A DNA stretch of 38,381 bases from IMG/VR virus record IMGVR_UViG_2909303794_000008; one strand, given 5' to 3'. The DNA comes from a virus (lineage: Duplodnaviria; Heunggongvirae; Uroviricota; Caudoviricetes). The translations under genes and the position numbers were made by a program. The notes below the pieces were generated by a model. That model did not search any database. It was not told the origin of the DNA and was given only the letters and a program-made list of their open reading frames with translations. This document shows, piece after piece, positions 27,015 to 37,266 of this stretch (the first letter of the stretch is position 1; each line of letters begins with the position of its first letter).

Positions 27015-28907
27015 TTAATCAGTTCCCTCAGTAAAGAATTTGATTGCGCTAGTTAGTACATAGTCAATAAAAAACTTTACGTGAAAAACCTGAAAGGAGT
27101 TATTGGCTGCGTTTTGAGTGAAATCTACAGCTATCTCTTTTAGGTTAATCAACCAGTTGTATTCTTCGGTCAGTCTGGTTCTAGCATCCCCATCAGAATA
27201 ACGATTCCGCAAGCTAAATGCCAGTTTCCTCATGAGGACTGGGTCAAGTTTCCTATAGCTTTCAATGAAAACTTCAGGAGGAACCAAGTGTAAAAAAGGC
27301 ACGTTATGAAGATTTAACTGCCTATTATTAGAATGACTCAATTCAGATACAAACGATAAGTTTCCCCTTTGCAACTCATCGCTGAACTGCAACGCAAATT
27401 CCGGAATTGATTCATCAAACCGTTTCTTCTTCGCTATCTCAATATGCTCAATAATGAGTTTGAATTCATCGCTATCCCTGTCAAGAAAACCAAAGCCACG
27501 CCATGCCCTTAATTCGTTATAATGCGTTTGCGCATATTCCTTATGTATATCTTCAGCTCTAAGTCTATTATAATAATTATTTATATTCTGTTTTGTCTCA
27601 TTTATGAGATCATGAACATCATCTGTTGTTAGACCTTCTTTCGCCATGTCCAGCAAAATACTCGCGGTCATCAGGAGTTCACCTAAGGAAGTGATCTTAC
27701 CTGAAAATAGATTATCCTTGGCAATGGCGTACTGCTCATTAAGCATAGTTTCATTAAGTTCTCGATAGTTCCACAAATACTCCCATGCTTGGGCATCGGT
27801 GCTTCTAAAAAATCGCGTAATATCCAACTGAGCGAGAAGTTCACTCGTTACCTTTCCATCACAGATTAGCTCCCTCCAGTACGCACCATCCAGTAACTTC
27901 TCGGTTAATACAGGAGATGAATATTTCTCGACGATCATGTCATACTTAGTTTTGGTACGCTCTTTACCTAAAAACATACCATAATTAACATTGCTGATTG
28001 AATCGAAATCCTCGTAGTTAAGGTTCCCTCCCCGGTACTCTATCGAGAAAATTAACAACTGCTGGAAAAATACCCTCATAAAATCGTCGTTGCTGACATA
28101 TTTATTTCCCAAAAGGGAAATGATGCGTTGTACATCAAGAAAGAACTGCCTCAAGTGTCTTAGATTATTATATTTCGCCGACACATAGATGTCTTCTATG
28201 GCCTGCATATCTTCTTTAAATATATTAGCAACGTGTAAACTGCTAATTACGCCCAAAAAAACATTACAAGCACTATGTAAATCTGACGTTACTTCAAATG
28301 TTTTACCAACAAGCTTTTCTTTTGTTCTCATGTATTCGCTGCTAGATTTCTCGTCATCATTATTTATTCGCTTTTCTCTATTGATTATTTCTTCTTCATT
28401 GGCAACCAAGATCGCTTTGTATCCGTTTACTTCTACAAAGTGGTTTATATATCCAAATAAAATTGGTAAATCTATACCAGCTCTCTCGATATCATCAAAG
28501 ACCAGCACAAAACCATCTGGTTTTCTACTAAAATCGTTAAGATTAATGGTGGGAACATTGGTATTGACATCAACGTCAGATTTATTATCGCCATTGAGAT
28601 CGATCTTGAAAGTAGCCTTAAGCGTATTTTTTAGTACATTTGCACCAAAGATAAGGGCTTTGTTTGATAGGACAGGATGAAGTTGACGATAGAACTCATC
28701 TTCAATCTGCTTAATAGAGTTGACGCCATACAAACTCACTTTTAGAAATTTAAACTCTGAATTCTTCTGCTTATATTCTTCAAGAACTTGTTCAATGAAC
28801 CAAGTTTTACCTGATCCCCAAGCACCTTTAAGCATAATGGCGTATTGAGGTTCAGTTGTAAGGCTAAGGTAATATTCTATATAGTCTTTGATGTACGTAT
28901 TGTTCAT
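27015..28907 (-). CDS. KAP-family P-loop NTPase
   Basis: Walker A GAWGSGKT near the N-terminus and Walker B-like VLVFDDIER about 100 aa later; start set to ATG 28907 (the track start 28958 is TTG); AT-rich. Confidence 0.7.
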   Translation of the reverse strand: MNNTYIKDYIEYYLSLTTEPQYAIMLKGAWGSGKTWFIEQVLEEYKQKNSEFKFLKVSLYGVNSIKQIEDEFYRQLHPVLSNKALIFGANVLKNTLKATFKIDLNGDNKSDVDVNTNVPTINLNDFSRKPDGFVLVFDDIERAGIDLPILFGYINHFVEVNGYKAILVANEEEIINREKRINNDDEKSSSEYMRTKEKLVGKTFEVTSDLHSACNVFLGVISSLHVANIFKEDMQAIEDIYVSAKYNNLRHLRQFFLDVQRIISLLGNKYVSNDDFMRVFFQQLLIFSIEYRGGNLNYEDFDSISNVNYGMFLGKERTKTKYDMIVEKYSSPVLTEKLLDGAYWRELICDGKVTSELLAQLDITRFFRSTDAQAWEYLWNYRELNETMLNEQYAIAKDNLFSGKITSLGELLMTASILLDMAKEGLTTDDVHDLINETKQNINNYYNRLRAEDIHKEYAQTHYNELRAWRGFGFLDRDSDEFKLIIEHIEIAKKKRFDESIPEFALQFSDELQRGNLSFVSELSHSNNRQLNLHNVPFLHLVPPEVFIESYRKLDPVLMRKLAFSLRNRYSDGDARTRLTEEYNWLINLKEIAVDFTQNAANNSFQVFHVKFFIDYVLTSAIKFFTEGTD

Positions 28908-29221
28908 TTTTAGTCCATTTTGATAAAATACATAAACATAGATGGTAAGTAGAGCCAAAGGCCAACTATGGAAAATTCAATCGGTAGTGTACATTGTAAG
29001 GTTATTATTAGTAAATTTTATAGAAATGCCCATAATCTTACAAAATTCAGATTATCCGTTGCGAATTAGTCTGCCATTCGTTAATTAACGAAAGTTAGCA
29101 GAAGAAACGTTTGCATCTTGCACAAAGCAGACGATCATTTATCAAAATGACCTTACACCTTATTTCACTCGTTGCCCAAACTAGCCCCCATCAGAATGAA
29201 TCCTCCTGGGGGCAACGTTTC

Positions 29222-29455
29222 TTAATGCAGCCAGCTGTCGTCTTCCCACACCTTCTGCATAATTTTCATCACTTGTTTTCTTTCTTCGTCCAGTTGCAGT
29301 CCGGTCAGTTCCACACCGTTAGAGCTACCTTTGCGGATACGAATTACCGTTTTGGGATACAGGGGGCGCAGATTGCGGTAAAGCTCGGATTCAAGGGCGT
29401 CCAGTGTAGACTGGCTAATCTTCTGCTCTTTATCGATCATTATTTCAATGCGCAT
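29222..29455 (-). CDS. dinI: DinI-family protein
   Basis: 77 aa starting MRIEIMIDK and ending WEDDSWLH, resembling DinI; GAGGTG SD; the track ORF is longer through an upstream in-frame extension. Confidence 0.7.
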   Translation of the reverse strand: MRIEIMIDKEQKISQSTLDALESELYRNLRPLYPKTVIRIRKGSSNGVELTGLQLDEERKQVMKIMQKVWEDDSWLH

Positions 29456-29465
29456 AAAAGTCACC

Positions 29466-29654
29466 TCAGCTGATGACATCCATTGAGCGGTTGTATTCGT
29501 GGCTTCTGATTTTTGCCATGAGTTCATCAGTCAATTCAGAAACCCACTGCAGAGCCAGCCCCTTCTCTTCATCACTACACTCACTAGCCGCTACAAGCTT
29601 AAGAAAAAAATCAATGCGCTGGAGCTTCAAAGACTCCAAAAAATAGTCCTGCAT
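29466..29654 (-). CDS. small SOS-regulated protein (possible Tum-like antirepressor)
   Basis: 62 aa, ATG at 29654 with GGAGG SD, about 40 bp downstream of a LexA box; function inferred only from context. Confidence 0.4.
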   Translation of the reverse strand: MQDYFLESLKLQRIDFFLKLVAASECSDEEKGLALQWVSELTDELMAKIRSHEYNRSMDVIS

Positions 29655-29695
29655 CTTTCCTCCTATGACACCACACGCAATGCTGTACGCATAAC

Positions 29696-29715
29696 CACTG
29701 TTTATATTTACAGTA
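29696..29715. promoter_or_regulatory. LexA operator (SOS box)
   Basis: CACTGTTTATATTTACAGTA = CTGT-N8-ACAG with an AT-rich spacer, 19/20 to the consensus TACTGTATATATATACAGTA. Confidence 0.75.
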
Positions 29716-29807
29716 TATAATAATCTTACTGATGTAAAACGTTTTTTTACGCTTATCAGCCTGATATGCCTGGTATTATTAAGAGCACGAATTGTTAGCC
29801 AGCGTAA

Positions 29808-32222
29808 TTAATACAGGTTCCGCCACTTATCATCTTCCTGCAAACGCTGGTTCCAATAGAAGATACGCAGGCCTGCTCCTGACGGAATACTGCCGCCGCG
29901 AAGGAGTAAATCGACCTCTTTCTCGCTGCCATCAAATCCTCTGGATTTCAGTTCATAGACGAGCTGCTGTCGTTGATGGTCTGTAATTCGCTGTTTGTAG
30001 TCTCTACGTCGTTTCGGTTTCACCAGACGTAACCTTGCAGCCAGTTCCCGGCGCTCCTTTTTGTTCATACTGTGCAGGTAATCGTGCAACTCCTTGTCAT
30101 CCATGCGGGTAAAGTCCGTTCTGGGGTCCCCATCAGCTGATTTATCTTTCTCCTGTTGGTTCAAATTTTCAGCAAGGGGACAGTTATTGCCACGAGTCCA
30201 AGGGGCGCAAGCGCCCTGGTCGGCTGCCGCCTCCTGAACATCAACGGCCTTACGAACCATTTTCCACTTCACGGCATGAGTGCAGATCTTGCCCTCTGCA
30301 ATAGGTGACCAGATGCCATAAATACGAATGCCGTGATCGCCATAGGCGGTCGGCTCTTCGTTGATTTCATAAGCGGTTCTGATGAGGTGATATTTGCGGG
30401 GAACCAGTACGCCGCCCTGCTTCATGATGTAGGTGGCAAAACAACCAGCATCAGCAGCAGCCAGGATGGCATCAAGGCGTGGGTTATCCAGTACCGGCGC
30501 ACCTGCTTTTTTGTCCCCCTGTTGCCTTGCCGCCTGACCAGCCAGCAATCGCAGTTCACGGTAAGCCTGACGCCCCGGAATGCCAAAGAAGCGGAATTGC
30601 TGAACACGATGCAGAGACGCCCAGGCATTAACGTATTCAGCATTATCACGCAGGGATTTCCCCGTTTCCTTGCTGATCTCGCCAGCCAGACCACGCCCGT
30701 CAATGTTCTTACTGATGTATTTCGCGATGTAGCTTGTTGGCGTTCCTTTGCGCGGGTTAATCAACTCAGACTTAAAGCGCGGCCCAGTGTTATTGCCCAG
30801 CTCCTCGCGGTCTTCACGGATGGCAAACTTACGCAGTAATGCAGTGATGGCACGGCGGTCTTTTTTGCGCATGAAACACAACAGGTGCCAGTGAACTGTG
30901 CCGTCATGATGCGGCTCAGCCACCCGCACGCCATACCAGCGCAACCCGGCTTTGTGCATCGCCTTACGAAATGCAGCAAACATGCCGACCAGATAATCGC
31001 TGCTTTGTCTTACCGTCGCGTTTGTCCAGGTCGGGTTTGGTCTGCCGTTATTGAGCGTGGAATGGAAACGTGACGGACAGGTGATGGTGTAGAAAACGGC
31101 GCAGTCACCGCGCATTTCCGCGATAAGCTCCAGACCTTTAACACAGGCCATCATCTCATTGCGGCGATGCGCCGGGTTGCTGCTGCTGGCGTTTACCACA
31201 TCCTCCATGTCCAGCGTGTCGCCGTCTTCGTTCACCAGTTCATGAGAACGGAAAAACTCCAGCGACTTACGGCGCTGCTCACGTTTATGCATCACGGCTT
31301 CATAGCTGACATAGGGAGATGCTTTTTTGCTGACCAGGCAGACAGCACGCAACTGCTCTTCCCGCCATTCGCAACGCATCTTCCATAATTTCCGATACCA
31401 CCAGTCGGCGCACAACATACGCGCCAGCGAACCCGGAATGAGTTCATAGGGCACGGGTTTACGGCGGTTTCTTTTCCGACGGAGTTGCTCAAACGCAGGA
31501 GGGATTACATCCAGACGCAGGGTTTCCGCTGCCACCTTTTCCCATGTCTTGCGGATTTCTTCTGGCTTAACGTCATCGGTGGCATACAAATCACCACAAG
31601 CTGCATCAAGGCACATGCTCATATGCGCGGCAACAAGGGTAGACAGGCGCTTCACCTGATCCTGACTCATTTCAGGCAGGATCAGCAGGCCGTCCAGCCC
31701 TTCATGGCTTGCCATAAAGCGAAAAGAAGTGGATAGCTGACTCTCGCGTACATGCTCCAGTCGTTCCAGACATGGCTTAATCGTCTCACGCAAATAGCGG
31801 GAATAAGCCTTTGGCCTGCCCAGGCTGCTGAAGTATTCAATACGTTGCATCAGCGGCTTGCTGATATGGGAAGGCTGGGCGTTGACGTCCGCCAGAATGA
31901 CCATATCCGGATTAAAACGCTGCTGCTCATGCGCCAGCTTTGCCCGACTAATGAGCTTATCCTGCTCGATTTCGCGCTGGACAGGATCACGGGATTCATT
32001 AAAGAAATAACGCTCCCAGACCTGATCACTCAGCGCCTCACGGCGCAGCTGTTCCTGCTCGTTATCGGCAGCGTACAGAGTGATCAGGTTTGAAAGCGCA
32101 GAAACCGGCGCAACTTCCGCCGGGTCCAGATAAGGGTTAATGGCCTTTTTCGGGCTGCTCCATGAGAATGCTGCTGCGACCTCGTTAAAGCCGCTGCAGT
32201 TGTTCATATCAGCATGGCTCAT
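29808..32222 (-). CDS. A: replication initiation endonuclease A (rolling-circle Rep)
   Basis: 804 aa; HWH metal-binding motif and YIAKYISKN tyrosine motif; ATGA overlap with dam. Confidence 0.9.
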
Positions 32223-33076
32223 GCACGCACTCCGTACACGGCAGAACTATCCACGCCACGCGAAGGATCAAATCCCACCCAGCAGCGCGGCCCGGAAACA
32301 GCGATGATTTCTGTTGCTGATTTACACTCGCCAGCTGCCACACCGATGCTGCGTTTTACCTTGATATAGTGGTGAGTAAAATTGCGATACAGCGAACGAA
32401 TCAGGGATGTGTCACTGTTAGAAACAATGACCGGATGTCCTTCAGATGATCGATGTTCAAGAACGGATGCCAGGTGATACTGGTCATCTTCAGTGAAACC
32501 ATCAGTGTGATAGCCGGAAAACGTACCGTCATAAGGCGGATCGCAATACACCACATCCCCCGCCTTCAACATCGCCAGCGTTTCATCAAAGCTGGCGCAG
32601 ATAAACGTTGCCCGCTGGGCTTTTTCTGCAAATGCGCGAATTTCTTTTTCAGGGAAATACGGTTTTTTATAATTCCCGTAGGGAATGTTGAAATGTCCGC
32701 TCTTGTTATAACGACATAACCCACGGTAACCGTGACGATTGAGATACAGGAAATATACTGCTTTCATGAAATCAGTAATTTCAGATGAGTAATTAAACTC
32801 CTGCCTTATGTTGTAATAAGCCACCTCCCTGTTTGCTTCCTCAAATAAGACTCTGGCACGAGATATAAATGATTCGCAATCAGCGGCAATCTTTTTATAG
32901 AGGTTGATTAAATCAGGATTAATATCAGCAACCAGATAGCTGGGGTAATCCGTCGCCATCATCACAGCACAGGAACCCGCGAAAGGTTCAACCAGTCGCG
33001 GGCCAGCAGGAAGGTGTTTTTTCAGTTCGGACATAATGGCGGTTTTATTACCCGCCCATTTCAGGATGGTGCTCAT
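32219..33076 (-). CDS. dam: DNA adenine methyltransferase (Dam-like, GATC type)
   Basis: LKWAGNK, EPFAGS (motif I) and DPPY (motif IV); start set to ATG 33076 (ATGA overlap with the upstream gene). Confidence 0.85.
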
Positions 33077-33300
33077 ACAGCACCTCCGTTGTAATGTTTG
33101 CCTTTCAGCTCTGCGATTTCCTGGCAGGTAATGCAAAGCTGCACTCCCGGAATGGCGCGGCGTCGTGCTGGCGGAATTGGCGCTTCACATTCAATACAAA
33201 GCACGCGAGACACGCCCGGTGTTTTGGCACGGGCAGCACGAATATGGCGCTGGCGTTCTTCTTCAACGCGCTGCTGTACGAGATCCATTGCATCAGCCAT
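33073..33300 (-). CDS. TraR/DksA-family C4 zinc-finger protein
   Basis: 75 aa; CIECEAPIPPARRRAIPGVQLCITCQ. Confidence 0.6.
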   Translation of the reverse strand: MADAMDLVQQRVEEERQRHIRAARAKTPGVSRVLCIECEAPIPPARRRAIPGVQLCITCQEIAELKGKHYNGGAV

Positions 33301-34972: not shown

Positions 34973-35569
34973 ATGTCAACATCAAAGTACCCAAATGAGA
35001 TCAAAATAAATCCCAATAAAGGTGGTAAGGCTGCGATTGAGCGATTAGTCGAAGCTTATGGCTTTACGACACGACAGGCTTTAGCTGATCACTTGGAAGT
35101 ATCAAAAAGCACTCTGGCGAACAGGTATTTGCGGGATACGTTTCCTGCAGACTGGATAATCCAATGTGCTCTTGAAACAGGAACCTCACTGAAATGGTTA
35201 ACCACCGGGCAAGGCCTTAAGCAAAGCTCGCTGACAGCAGCTACAGAAGAGCTTGCCAAGTTTCGCCTTACCGCAGGCAAAATGATTGAAGATGGTTCAT
35301 ATGTCTTCGATTCATCATTTCTTCCTGCAAATCTTTCATCACCAATTGTTATTCAGGATGGGCTCGTCACATACATTTGTGATCAAAAATTTTCTGAAGT
35401 ACTTGATGGGCACTGGTTAATCAACATCGACGGAACCTATTCCATTCGAAAAATCACAAAGCTTCCAAAAGGTATGATTAAAATTACAAGTACAGAGAAT
35501 AGCTTTGAATGTGCATTTTCTGATATTGAAGTAGTTGCTTGTATAAGAAGTACAATAGTTTCAAATTAA
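34973..35569 (+). CDS. cI: CI immunity repressor (phage 186 CI type)
   Basis: 198 aa; N-terminal EAYGF...LANRY...CALETG...WL.TG and C-terminal WLINIDGTYSIRKITKLP resemble 186 CI. Confidence 0.8.
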   Translation: MSTSKYPNEIKINPNKGGKAAIERLVEAYGFTTRQALADHLEVSKSTLANRYLRDTFPADWIIQCALETGTSLKWLTTGQGLKQSSLTAATEELAKFRLTAGKMIEDGSYVFDSSFLPANLSSPIVIQDGLVTYICDQKFSEVLDGHWLINIDGTYSIRKITKLPKGMIKITSTENSFECAFSDIEVVACIRSTIVSN

Positions 35570-35589: not shown

Positions 35590-37266
35590 ATGAATTCATT
35601 TTCCATCGTTATATTCTTATTAGCATTTCTCGCCCCCATTCTAGCTGTAATATTATTTAAGCAAAGCAAAAAACATAAAGCGGCTATAGATACCTTGACA
35701 GCTAACAACATAGCCCTTTCCAACCAACTGAAAGAAAATCAAGAAGAATTAGCACAGACTGTACGAGATCTATCAGAGCTTGAAGGACGAGCTGCACCAT
35801 TATGGCAATACGTAGAATTGCACAGCGCAGTGATGGAAGCAGAGAATAAGATAAAAAATGCAGACTCAATAGCCAGGCAAAAAATAGAAGAAGCCCAAAT
35901 AAAGGCTGCTAAGACAGTAAACGAAGCAAATTATCAAGCTCAGATAAAAATAAGCAACGCTAATAGCGAAGCTATAGCAATTACTAAAGACGCTCGCGAT
36001 GCACGCCTGAAAGCTAAAGAACGTCTTGATAATGCCAATAGTAAAGCAAATGAGCTGATCTCAAATGCTAATGACAATGCAGTGAAAATTATTTCCGATG
36101 CAGAAGAAAGAGCAAAAGAGATTGCTGGTTCAGCATATGAAGCTAAAGAGTTTGCAGAAAAATATGAAGCAGTTGCCAAATCAATGAAAAATAAAATTGA
36201 AGGTTATGGTGATGAATGGATCATCCCTAACCGTAGCGTTCTCGATGAATTGGCAGAAAATTATGAGTTTACAGATGCAGGCAAGGAATTACAAAAAGCC
36301 AGGGAGTTAACAAAATCATTAATAAAAACTAATAAAGCTGCTTCGTGTGATTATGTTGAACAAAACAGGCGTAATACTGCTATCAACTTTGTTTTAGATG
36401 CCTTCAATGGAAGAGTTGACAGTATTTTATCAAAAGTCAAACACAACAATTTTGGAAAACTTTCCCAAGAGATAAAAGATGCGTTTCAACTTGTAAATTA
36501 CAATGGTTCTGCCTTTAGGTCCGCAAAAATAAGTGACATCTATCTTCAAGCTCGACTCAACGAGCTAAAATGGGGTGTTGCAGTTAATGAAATTATGCTC
36601 GAAGAAAAAGAAGAGCAAAGAAGGATTAAAGAACAACTTCGTGAAGAGGAAAGAGCTCGTAGGGAGTATGAAAAAGCGATAAAAGAAGCTGAAAAAGAAG
36701 AGAAAGCTATTCAGCAAGCTATAAATAAAGCAACAAAAGAGCTTATGCTTGCAAATGAAGAACAACGCTTAGCTTTAGAGCAAAAAATAGCTGAACTACA
36801 GTTAAAATATGAAGAAGCTGAAGCTAAAAACCAACGAGCTATTTCTATGGCTCAACAAACTAGATCAGGCCACGTTTATATAATTAGTAATATTGGCTCA
36901 TTTGGCGAAGATGTATATAAAATTGGAATGACACGCCGCCTTGAACCACTTGATCGTGTTCGTGAACTCGGTGATGCTAGTGTTCCTTTTTCGTTCGATG
37001 TTCATGCGATGATTTATAGTGATGATGCACCATCATTAGAAAATCATCTGCATAAAGTCTTCAACGAAAAACAGGTCAATAAAATTAACTCACGAAAAGA
37101 GTTTTTCAACGTAAATATTAAAGAAATTAAGTCTGTTATTGAAGATATGAACATCAACGCACAATGGACAATGTTTGCGGAAGCGAAAGAATATAGAGAG
37201 TCACTGGCGATTGAGCAAGAGCGCAAAGCAGCAACTTCCGCCAACGATGAACTGCATGTTGCTTAG
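35590..37266 (+). CDS. membrane-anchored coiled-coil protein with C-terminal T5orf172 (GIY-YIG-like) domain; DUF4041-like architecture
   Basis: 558 aa; N-terminal TM helix, long coiled coils with repeated NANS/KANE motifs, C-terminal GHVYIISN...VYKIGMTRRL...ENHLH...EFF motif; AT-rich; AAAGGA SD 20 bp after the cI stop. Confidence 0.6.
   Translation: MNSFSIVIFLLAFLAPILAVILFKQSKKHKAAIDTLTANNIALSNQLKENQEELAQTVRDLSELEGRAAPLWQYVELHSAVMEAENKIKNADSIARQKIEEAQIKAAKTVNEANYQAQIKISNANSEAIAITKDARDARLKAKERLDNANSKANELISNANDNAVKIISDAEERAKEIAGSAYEAKEFAEKYEAVAKSMKNKIEGYGDEWIIPNRSVLDELAENYEFTDAGKELQKARELTKSLIKTNKAASCDYVEQNRRNTAINFVLDAFNGRVDSILSKVKHNNFGKLSQEIKDAFQLVNYNGSAFRSAKISDIYLQARLNELKWGVAVNEIMLEEKEEQRRIKEQLREEERARREYEKAIKEAEKEEKAIQQAINKATKELMLANEEQRLALEQKIAELQLKYEEAEAKNQRAISMAQQTRSGHVYIISNIGSFGEDVYKIGMTRRLEPLDRVRELGDASVPFSFDVHAMIYSDDAPSLENHLHKVFNEKQVNKINSRKEFFNVNIKEIKSVIEDMNINAQWTMFAEAKEYRESLAIEQERKAATSANDELHVA

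Follow-up and report, generated by a model that had tools for sequence, protein, structure and literature searches.

The locus at 29222-29715 in the 38,381-nucleotide stretch of Caudoviricetes DNA analysed here (the window) raises the question of how an Escherichia coli prophage with a 186-type repressor would be induced upon DNA damage, and which of the two small genes that follow a LexA box at this locus would act as the inducer. It is well established for phage 186 that the LexA-repressed promoter p95 drives the expression of Tum, which sequesters the CI repressor (PMC7708051), and the premise of the initial annotation that 186 is induced in this way and not by repressor cleavage is borne out by the same source. 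The annotation had read the two genes, a 62-codon ORF and a DinI-family gene, as a LexA-controlled SOS induction circuit, and at the level of sequence this reading is supported, with the gene order, the layout of promoter and box, the homologies and the type of CI all in agreement. The module is very probably the operon that mediates SOS induction of an E. coli prophage of the Fels-2/186-like type (Peduoviridae), in which tum takes the split form of tumA plus tumB.

The predicted SOS promoter and its two cistrons

The LexA box, TACTGTAAATATAAACAGTG, is located on the minus strand at 29715-29696 (the plus strand reads CACTGTTTATATTTACAGTA) and has three mismatches to the 20-nt consensus TACTG(TA)5CAGTA, with both the CTG and the CAG arm intact. 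No other site in the 38-kb window comes within three mismatches of the consensus, and the chance expectation is nil (0 in 100 shuffles). The description of the box as near-consensus holds, as does its placement about 40 bp upstream of the 62-codon ORF, the exact distance from the end of the box to the ATG being 41 nt. The box opens with TACTGT (29715-29710, minus strand), which serves as the -10 hexamer of a predicted p95-like SOS promoter, the -35 hexamer of which, TTTACA (29733-29738, minus strand), lies 17 nt further upstream. When the promoter regions of relatives are compared by anchoring them on the LexA box, the TTTACA and the 17-nt spacing are found to be kept in ST512-KPC3phi13.6 and SEN8, and with a spacing of 18 nt in ESSI-2, although the sequence of the spacer has diverged. 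A scan with a generic sigma-70 consensus did not call the promoter, because the TACTGT hexamer is weak and agrees with TATAAT in only three of the six positions. In the p95 promoter of phage 186 the annotated LexA site and the -10 element begin at the same base, and the promoter in the window is arranged likewise, so that the box, a LexA operator by prediction, overlaps the promoter of the operon. The Fels-2 box is identical to that in the window, and one CTGT-N8-ACAG motif is found just upstream of tum or tumA in each of 186, Fels-2, PSP3, ESSI-2 and YenM_06.16-2.

Directly after the box, between it and the ribosome-binding site, a further motif, GTTAT-N3-TACAG (29676-29695, minus strand), is kept in all five Fels-2-like relatives although the flanking genes show a dS of about 1. 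By manual count, the 20-mer taken from the main box's CAGTG arm onwards agrees with the LexA consensus in 15 of 20 positions in Fels-2 and in 12 of 20 in the window. The region may represent a weak second LexA site or an element of the 5′-UTR; an Rfam scan of 28800-30000 returned no RNA family.

The first cistron, the tumA-like gene of 62 codons (29466-29654, minus strand), has the ribosome-binding site AGGAGG within the 41 nt that follow the box. The second, a tumB-like DinI-family gene of 77 codons (29222-29455, minus strand), begins exactly 10 nt after the TGA stop of the first, as the initial annotation had noted, and has its own ribosome-binding site, GAGGTG, within this gap. The RefSeq PGAP annotation of an identical E. 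coli prophage likewise calls genes of 62 and 77 codons, and a 101-codon ORF covering the DinI gene from a start at 29527 was set aside as an upstream extension of the real gene. The hairpin GTCATCAGCTGAGGTGAC (29460-29477, minus strand), the only one reported by the promoter and terminator scan, covers the stop of the 62-codon ORF together with the DinI ribosome-binding site and could couple the translation of the two genes. The sequence of the junction differs in SEN8 and ST512-KPC3phi13.6, however, and as the hairpin is thus not conserved it is not proposed as a regulatory element.

The module lies directly downstream of gene A, which encodes a P2/186-type replication endonuclease of 804 residues (29808-32222, minus strand) and appears as an ORF with the same annotation in the identical E. 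coli prophage; in 186, Fels-2 and PSP3, too, gene A is followed by tum. Immediately upstream of gene A, and overlapping it as in Fels-2, is a gene for a D12-class Dam-like N6-adenine methyltransferase (32219-33136, minus strand). On the other side of the module, the segment at 29168-29221 (minus strand) may tentatively be regarded as a partial terminator, with a GCCCCCA...UGGGGGC stem followed by UAGUUU; the fold has a predicted energy of -29.1 kcal/mol with a z-score of only -1.65, the U tract is weak, and a terminator consensus scan did not report the segment.

Similarity to the related phages stops at about 29212, where a region of variable cargo starts. A KAP-family P-loop NTPase of 647 residues (27015-28958, minus strand) is encoded directly downstream of the DinI gene, and its PADLOC match is the candidate defence family PDC-S49 (E-value 4e-160). 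By appearance it is a cargo or defence gene, placed in the variable stretch that follows the tum genes and is occupied in 186 by orf97. A second defence-type cargo gene lies between cI and int (35590-37266, plus strand) and encodes a 558-residue protein with DUF4041 and T5orf172/MUG113 domains that matches the PADLOC defence system PD-Lambda-1 with an E-value of 4e-120.

Together, the 62 and 77 residues of the two products come close to the 146 residues of the Tum protein of 186, and the two ORFs could accordingly be viewed as halves of a once-fused tum that was broken by a nonsense mutation or frameshift, with the 62-codon ORF a dead remnant and the DinI gene alone expressed. The pattern of substitution speaks against such decay. 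In comparisons with Fels-2, SEN8 and the Klebsiella phage ST512-KPC3phi13.6, where dS is about 0.8-1.4 and higher for one pair of DinI genes, dN/dS amounts to 0.04-0.12 for the tumA-like gene and 0.03-0.10 for the DinI gene, and both ORFs therefore encode proteins under purifying selection. Furthermore, the two ORFs have separate Shine-Dalgarno sequences, and the split with its gap of 10-11 nt is kept both in diverged phages and in 1124 E. coli genomes. The overall architecture in the diverged relatives is likewise constant, with the box followed by 41-48 nt, 62 codons, the 10-11 nt gap and 77 codons. The homologues of the small protein, described below, point in the same direction, as the representatives of 86 clusters are nearly all short and none is fused to DinI, and in some phages the small gene stands alone, with no DinI gene. 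A decayed tum is thus very improbable, and the two ORFs are best read as a functional pair of tumA-like and tumB-like genes.

Phage 500465-1 was left out of the dN/dS comparison on account of a local disruption of the reading frame in its tumA copy. The tumA-like ORF of this Escherichia phage (401-586) reads ERGWLCSG where EKGLALQW is expected, which inflates the dN/dS of that pair; the stretch looks like a compensated double frameshift and may be a sequencing artefact. Among complete E. coli genomes the module is present in 1124 of 5426, or about a fifth, and strain ECCHD184 matches it at 100%.

The 62-residue protein and its relation to Tum

STM2728 of Fels-2 shares 96.8% identity with the 62-aa protein. 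PGAP labels the gene as a hypothetical protein, the protein belongs to PHROG 698 (unknown function), and scans against Pfam, NCBIfam and PADLOC gave nothing meaningful. The initial annotation had put it forward as a candidate Tum-like antirepressor. In a direct BLASTP comparison with 186 Tum no alignment was obtained. A family profile built from diverse members, with the 186 and PSP3 sequences left out, nevertheless aligns with 186 Tum in hhalign over residues 4-45 of both proteins with a probability of 95.3% and an E-value of 2.4e-8. An hmmsearch of 807 ORFs with the same profile scores the 186 tum frame at 32.8 bits (E-value 2.8e-6, Z=1e6) over Tum residues 6-43, and beyond it returns only the tumA or tum ORFs that were to be expected, namely those of Fels-2, ESSI-2, YenM_06.16-2 and the window itself. 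The homology to Tum is thus a matter of profiles over about 40 residues, in which the family and Tum have in common a signature of roughly E-x4-[QE]R[IV]-x5-L-x5-C-x6-[LI]A[LI]-x2-[IVL][AS]E[LI]. These N-terminal matches support the candidacy, and we regard the 62-aa protein as a predicted antirepressor that is a homologue of the Tum N-terminal domain in 186.

An AlphaFold2 model of the protein (pLDDT 88) consists of a helical hairpin with helices at residues 2-23 and 28-61 and with the conserved cysteine in the loop between them. A Foldseek search of the PDB with this model found generic helical hairpins only, none of them at an E-value of 0.001 or below.

When 1.84 billion representative proteins were searched by profile, 86 clusters were recovered, nearly all of short proteins of about 55-75 residues. 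No fusion to DinI was found among the 86 cluster representatives, and there is therefore no Rosetta-stone link between the two domains beyond 186 itself. In the Cronobacter phage ESSI-2 and in Yersinia phages, small tumA-like genes with a LexA box are present and a DinI gene is lacking, which indicates that the small protein is an autonomous unit. Many of the distant TumA-like proteins end in a C-terminal tail of the form K-N-P-Q-x-G-G...G-x-[LF]-Q, as seen in P0146, P0158, P0161, P0176, P0183, P0192 and ESSI-2 (1171-1425), whereas the protein in the window has no such tail.

CI, the DinI-family protein and the proposed route to induction

The presumed target of the antirepressor is the product of cI (34973-35569, plus strand), identified as a 186-type immunity repressor by its similarity to 186 CI and its Pfam domains. 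It is 33% identical to 186 CI (E-value 4e-35) and consists of the domains Phage_CI_repr and Phage_CI_C, and Pfam detects no S24 (LexA-like) peptidase domain in it; the assignment of a 186-type CI in the initial annotation was thus correct. The textbook default for SOS-inducible prophages is a lambda-like route in which RecA stimulates the self-cleavage of the repressor, and the LexA-controlled module would then be a mere accessory, but nothing specific to this prophage favours such a route. The lack of an S24 peptidase domain makes it unlikely, the two-domain architecture of CI is that of 186, and 186 itself is induced through the anti-CI factor Tum and not by cleavage (PMC7708051). We consider self-cleavage of CI the least probable of the explanations weighed here, with hardly any chance of being right.

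The 77-aa protein is a clear member of the DinI family (Pfam PF06183, E-value 7.5e-23, 81.1 bits against a cut-off of 24.2). Its amino-acid sequence is identical to that of the DinI-family protein of Fels-2, the annotation of which notes a similarity to PSP3 TumB, and the protein is 41% identical to residues 71-145 of 186 Tum (E-value 3e-24). With the NCBIfam equivalog model for the chromosomal DinI it scores 42.7, below the cut-off of 111, and it is therefore a DinI-family paralogue and not the host dinI. As tumA-like genes occur without DinI, and as non-polar deletions of dinI in the Gifsy prophages left induction unaffected (PMC3121763), the DinI-like protein would be accessory to induction.

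Taken together, these features suggest a circuit which in the lysogen would be held silent by the host LexA, since LexA bound to the box would cover the -10 element and the likely transcription start and keep the promoter shut. Upon DNA damage, activated RecA would promote the self-cleavage of LexA and the promoter would fire. The 62-aa helical-hairpin protein would then presumably bind the 186-type CI stoichiometrically and block its binding to the operators, thereby derepressing the early lytic promoter and inducing the prophage with no need for cleavage of the repressor. The DinI-family protein, for its part, probably binds RecA filaments and may tune the strength or the duration of the SOS signal, and would not itself be the inducer.

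The same operon could be under SOS control and yet not be the trigger of induction, for example if DinI damps RecA, the small protein acts as its partner or regulator, and the prophage responds to some other signal. The Gifsy deletions just mentioned are in keeping with this, and our literature searches recovered no direct experiment on the 62-aa protein or its 97%-identical Fels-2 orthologue, while a search for TumA/TumB returned irrelevant papers only. On the other hand, the small protein is homologous to precisely that part of Tum which separates the full-length product, annotated as inhibiting DNA binding by CI, from the truncated DinI-only products. In addition, the window contains no further LexA box and no second antirepressor candidate, CI has no cleavage domain, and Fels-2 is regarded as regulated like 186 in a passage of PMC3121763 which cites Bunny et al. 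2002 on the lethality of lexA-null mutations due to Fels-2. An SOS-regulated operon without a role as trigger is therefore improbable, if less so than a decayed tum, and induction by the TumA-like protein remains the preferred explanation.

A comparison of related repressors offers a possible clue as to where such an antirepressor might dock. In phages with a TumA at least 97% identical to that of the window, the CI proteins are only 38-50% identical overall, with 70-81% identity in the N-terminal DNA-binding domain and 26-37% in the C-terminal oligomerisation domain; for Fels-2, RE2010 and Klebsiella 4LV2017 the overall figure is 40-45%. In 186, where the N-terminal region of Tum is much more divergent, the N-terminal domain of CI is 44% identical. 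Within the TumA-sharing phages, a patch in the N-terminal part of CI with the pattern SKSTxAxR..RD.FPA.W.IQC.LETG.SL.WL is conserved, the linkers and C-terminal domains are highly divergent, and some of the proteins have a 16-aa insertion in the linker. One might speculate that antirepressors of the TumA type dock on the N-terminal domain of CI, and that a single allele could serve as a master key that cross-induces several Fels-2-like prophages of otherwise differing make-up in one cell, in the way that the Gifsy antirepressors do. We hold this idea only tentatively and would sooner expect it to fail; the pattern could equally have arisen from mosaic recombination that swaps the C-terminal domain of CI together with int.

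Relation to known induction modules

The module is already known: it is a near-identical copy of the split-tum element described for Fels-2 and PSP3, and as the split arrangement has been reported for both phages it is not new but ordinary. Its analysis would nevertheless explain how a common type of E. coli prophage wakes upon DNA damage, including that caused by SOS-inducing antibiotics, and such waking bears on how the defence and other cargo genes of the prophage spread. The practical gain is one of annotation, as a 62-aa gene widely labelled hypothetical can be connected, through a family profile, with the part of Tum that acts as antirepressor.

The closest counterpart is the STM2728/STM2726.1 pair of the Salmonella prophage Fels-2, which likewise follows gene A and agrees with the module of the E. 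coli prophage in layout: the same box, an ATG 41 nt further on, and ORFs of 62 and 77 codons with 10 nt between them. The two phages differ in their hosts, in the cargo downstream of the module (the KAP NTPase in the window, STM2726 in Fels-2) and in their CI proteins, which are 40% identical overall, with 70% in the N-terminal and 28% in the C-terminal domain. In Fels-2-carrying Salmonella exposed to the mutagen MX, differential expression was flagged for the predicted operon STM2726-STM2728, with STM2727 up 5.5-14.8 fold alongside the LexA regulon (PMC2225428).

PSP3 has the same two-gene split into tumA and tumB, with a LexA box overlapping the promoter and with the genes directly after gene A. 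Its tumB, annotated as similar to dinI and the 3′ end of 186 tum, is close to the DinI gene of the window as judged by eye, whereas its 60-aa TumA, annotated as similar to the 5′ end of 186 tum and involved in UV induction of the prophage, is very divergent from the 62-aa protein (hhalign E-value 0.003, probability 10%), the two nevertheless aligning in the same register around Cys-x6-LAL. A passage of Lemire et al. (PMC3121763) states that in Fels-2 and PSP3 tum is split in two by a stop codon, and that, of the two PSP3 halves, the upstream one, TumA, is reportedly the antirepressor, the downstream one, TumB, being a DinI homologue. For both points the passage refers to Bunny et al. 2002 and a personal communication, and what it says on function in PSP3 is such a communication, cited second-hand.

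The p95-tum region of 186 shares with the window the predicted LexA box starting at the -10 element, the position after gene A and the type of CI. There, Tum is a single polypeptide of 146 residues, and internal starts also give DinI-only products, whereas the window has separate cistrons; orf97, found downstream of tum in 186, is absent from the window. A more distant parallel is provided by the dinI-gfoA and dinI-gftA operons of the Salmonella prophages Gifsy-1, -2 and -3, which likewise combine a LexA-controlled DinI homologue with a small antirepressor and a repressor that is not cleaved (PMC3121763), an arrangement that in the window is predicted from sequence. Unlike the module described here, the Gifsy operons have dinI as the first gene, belong to lambdoid phages and act against a DicA/RacR-like repressor.
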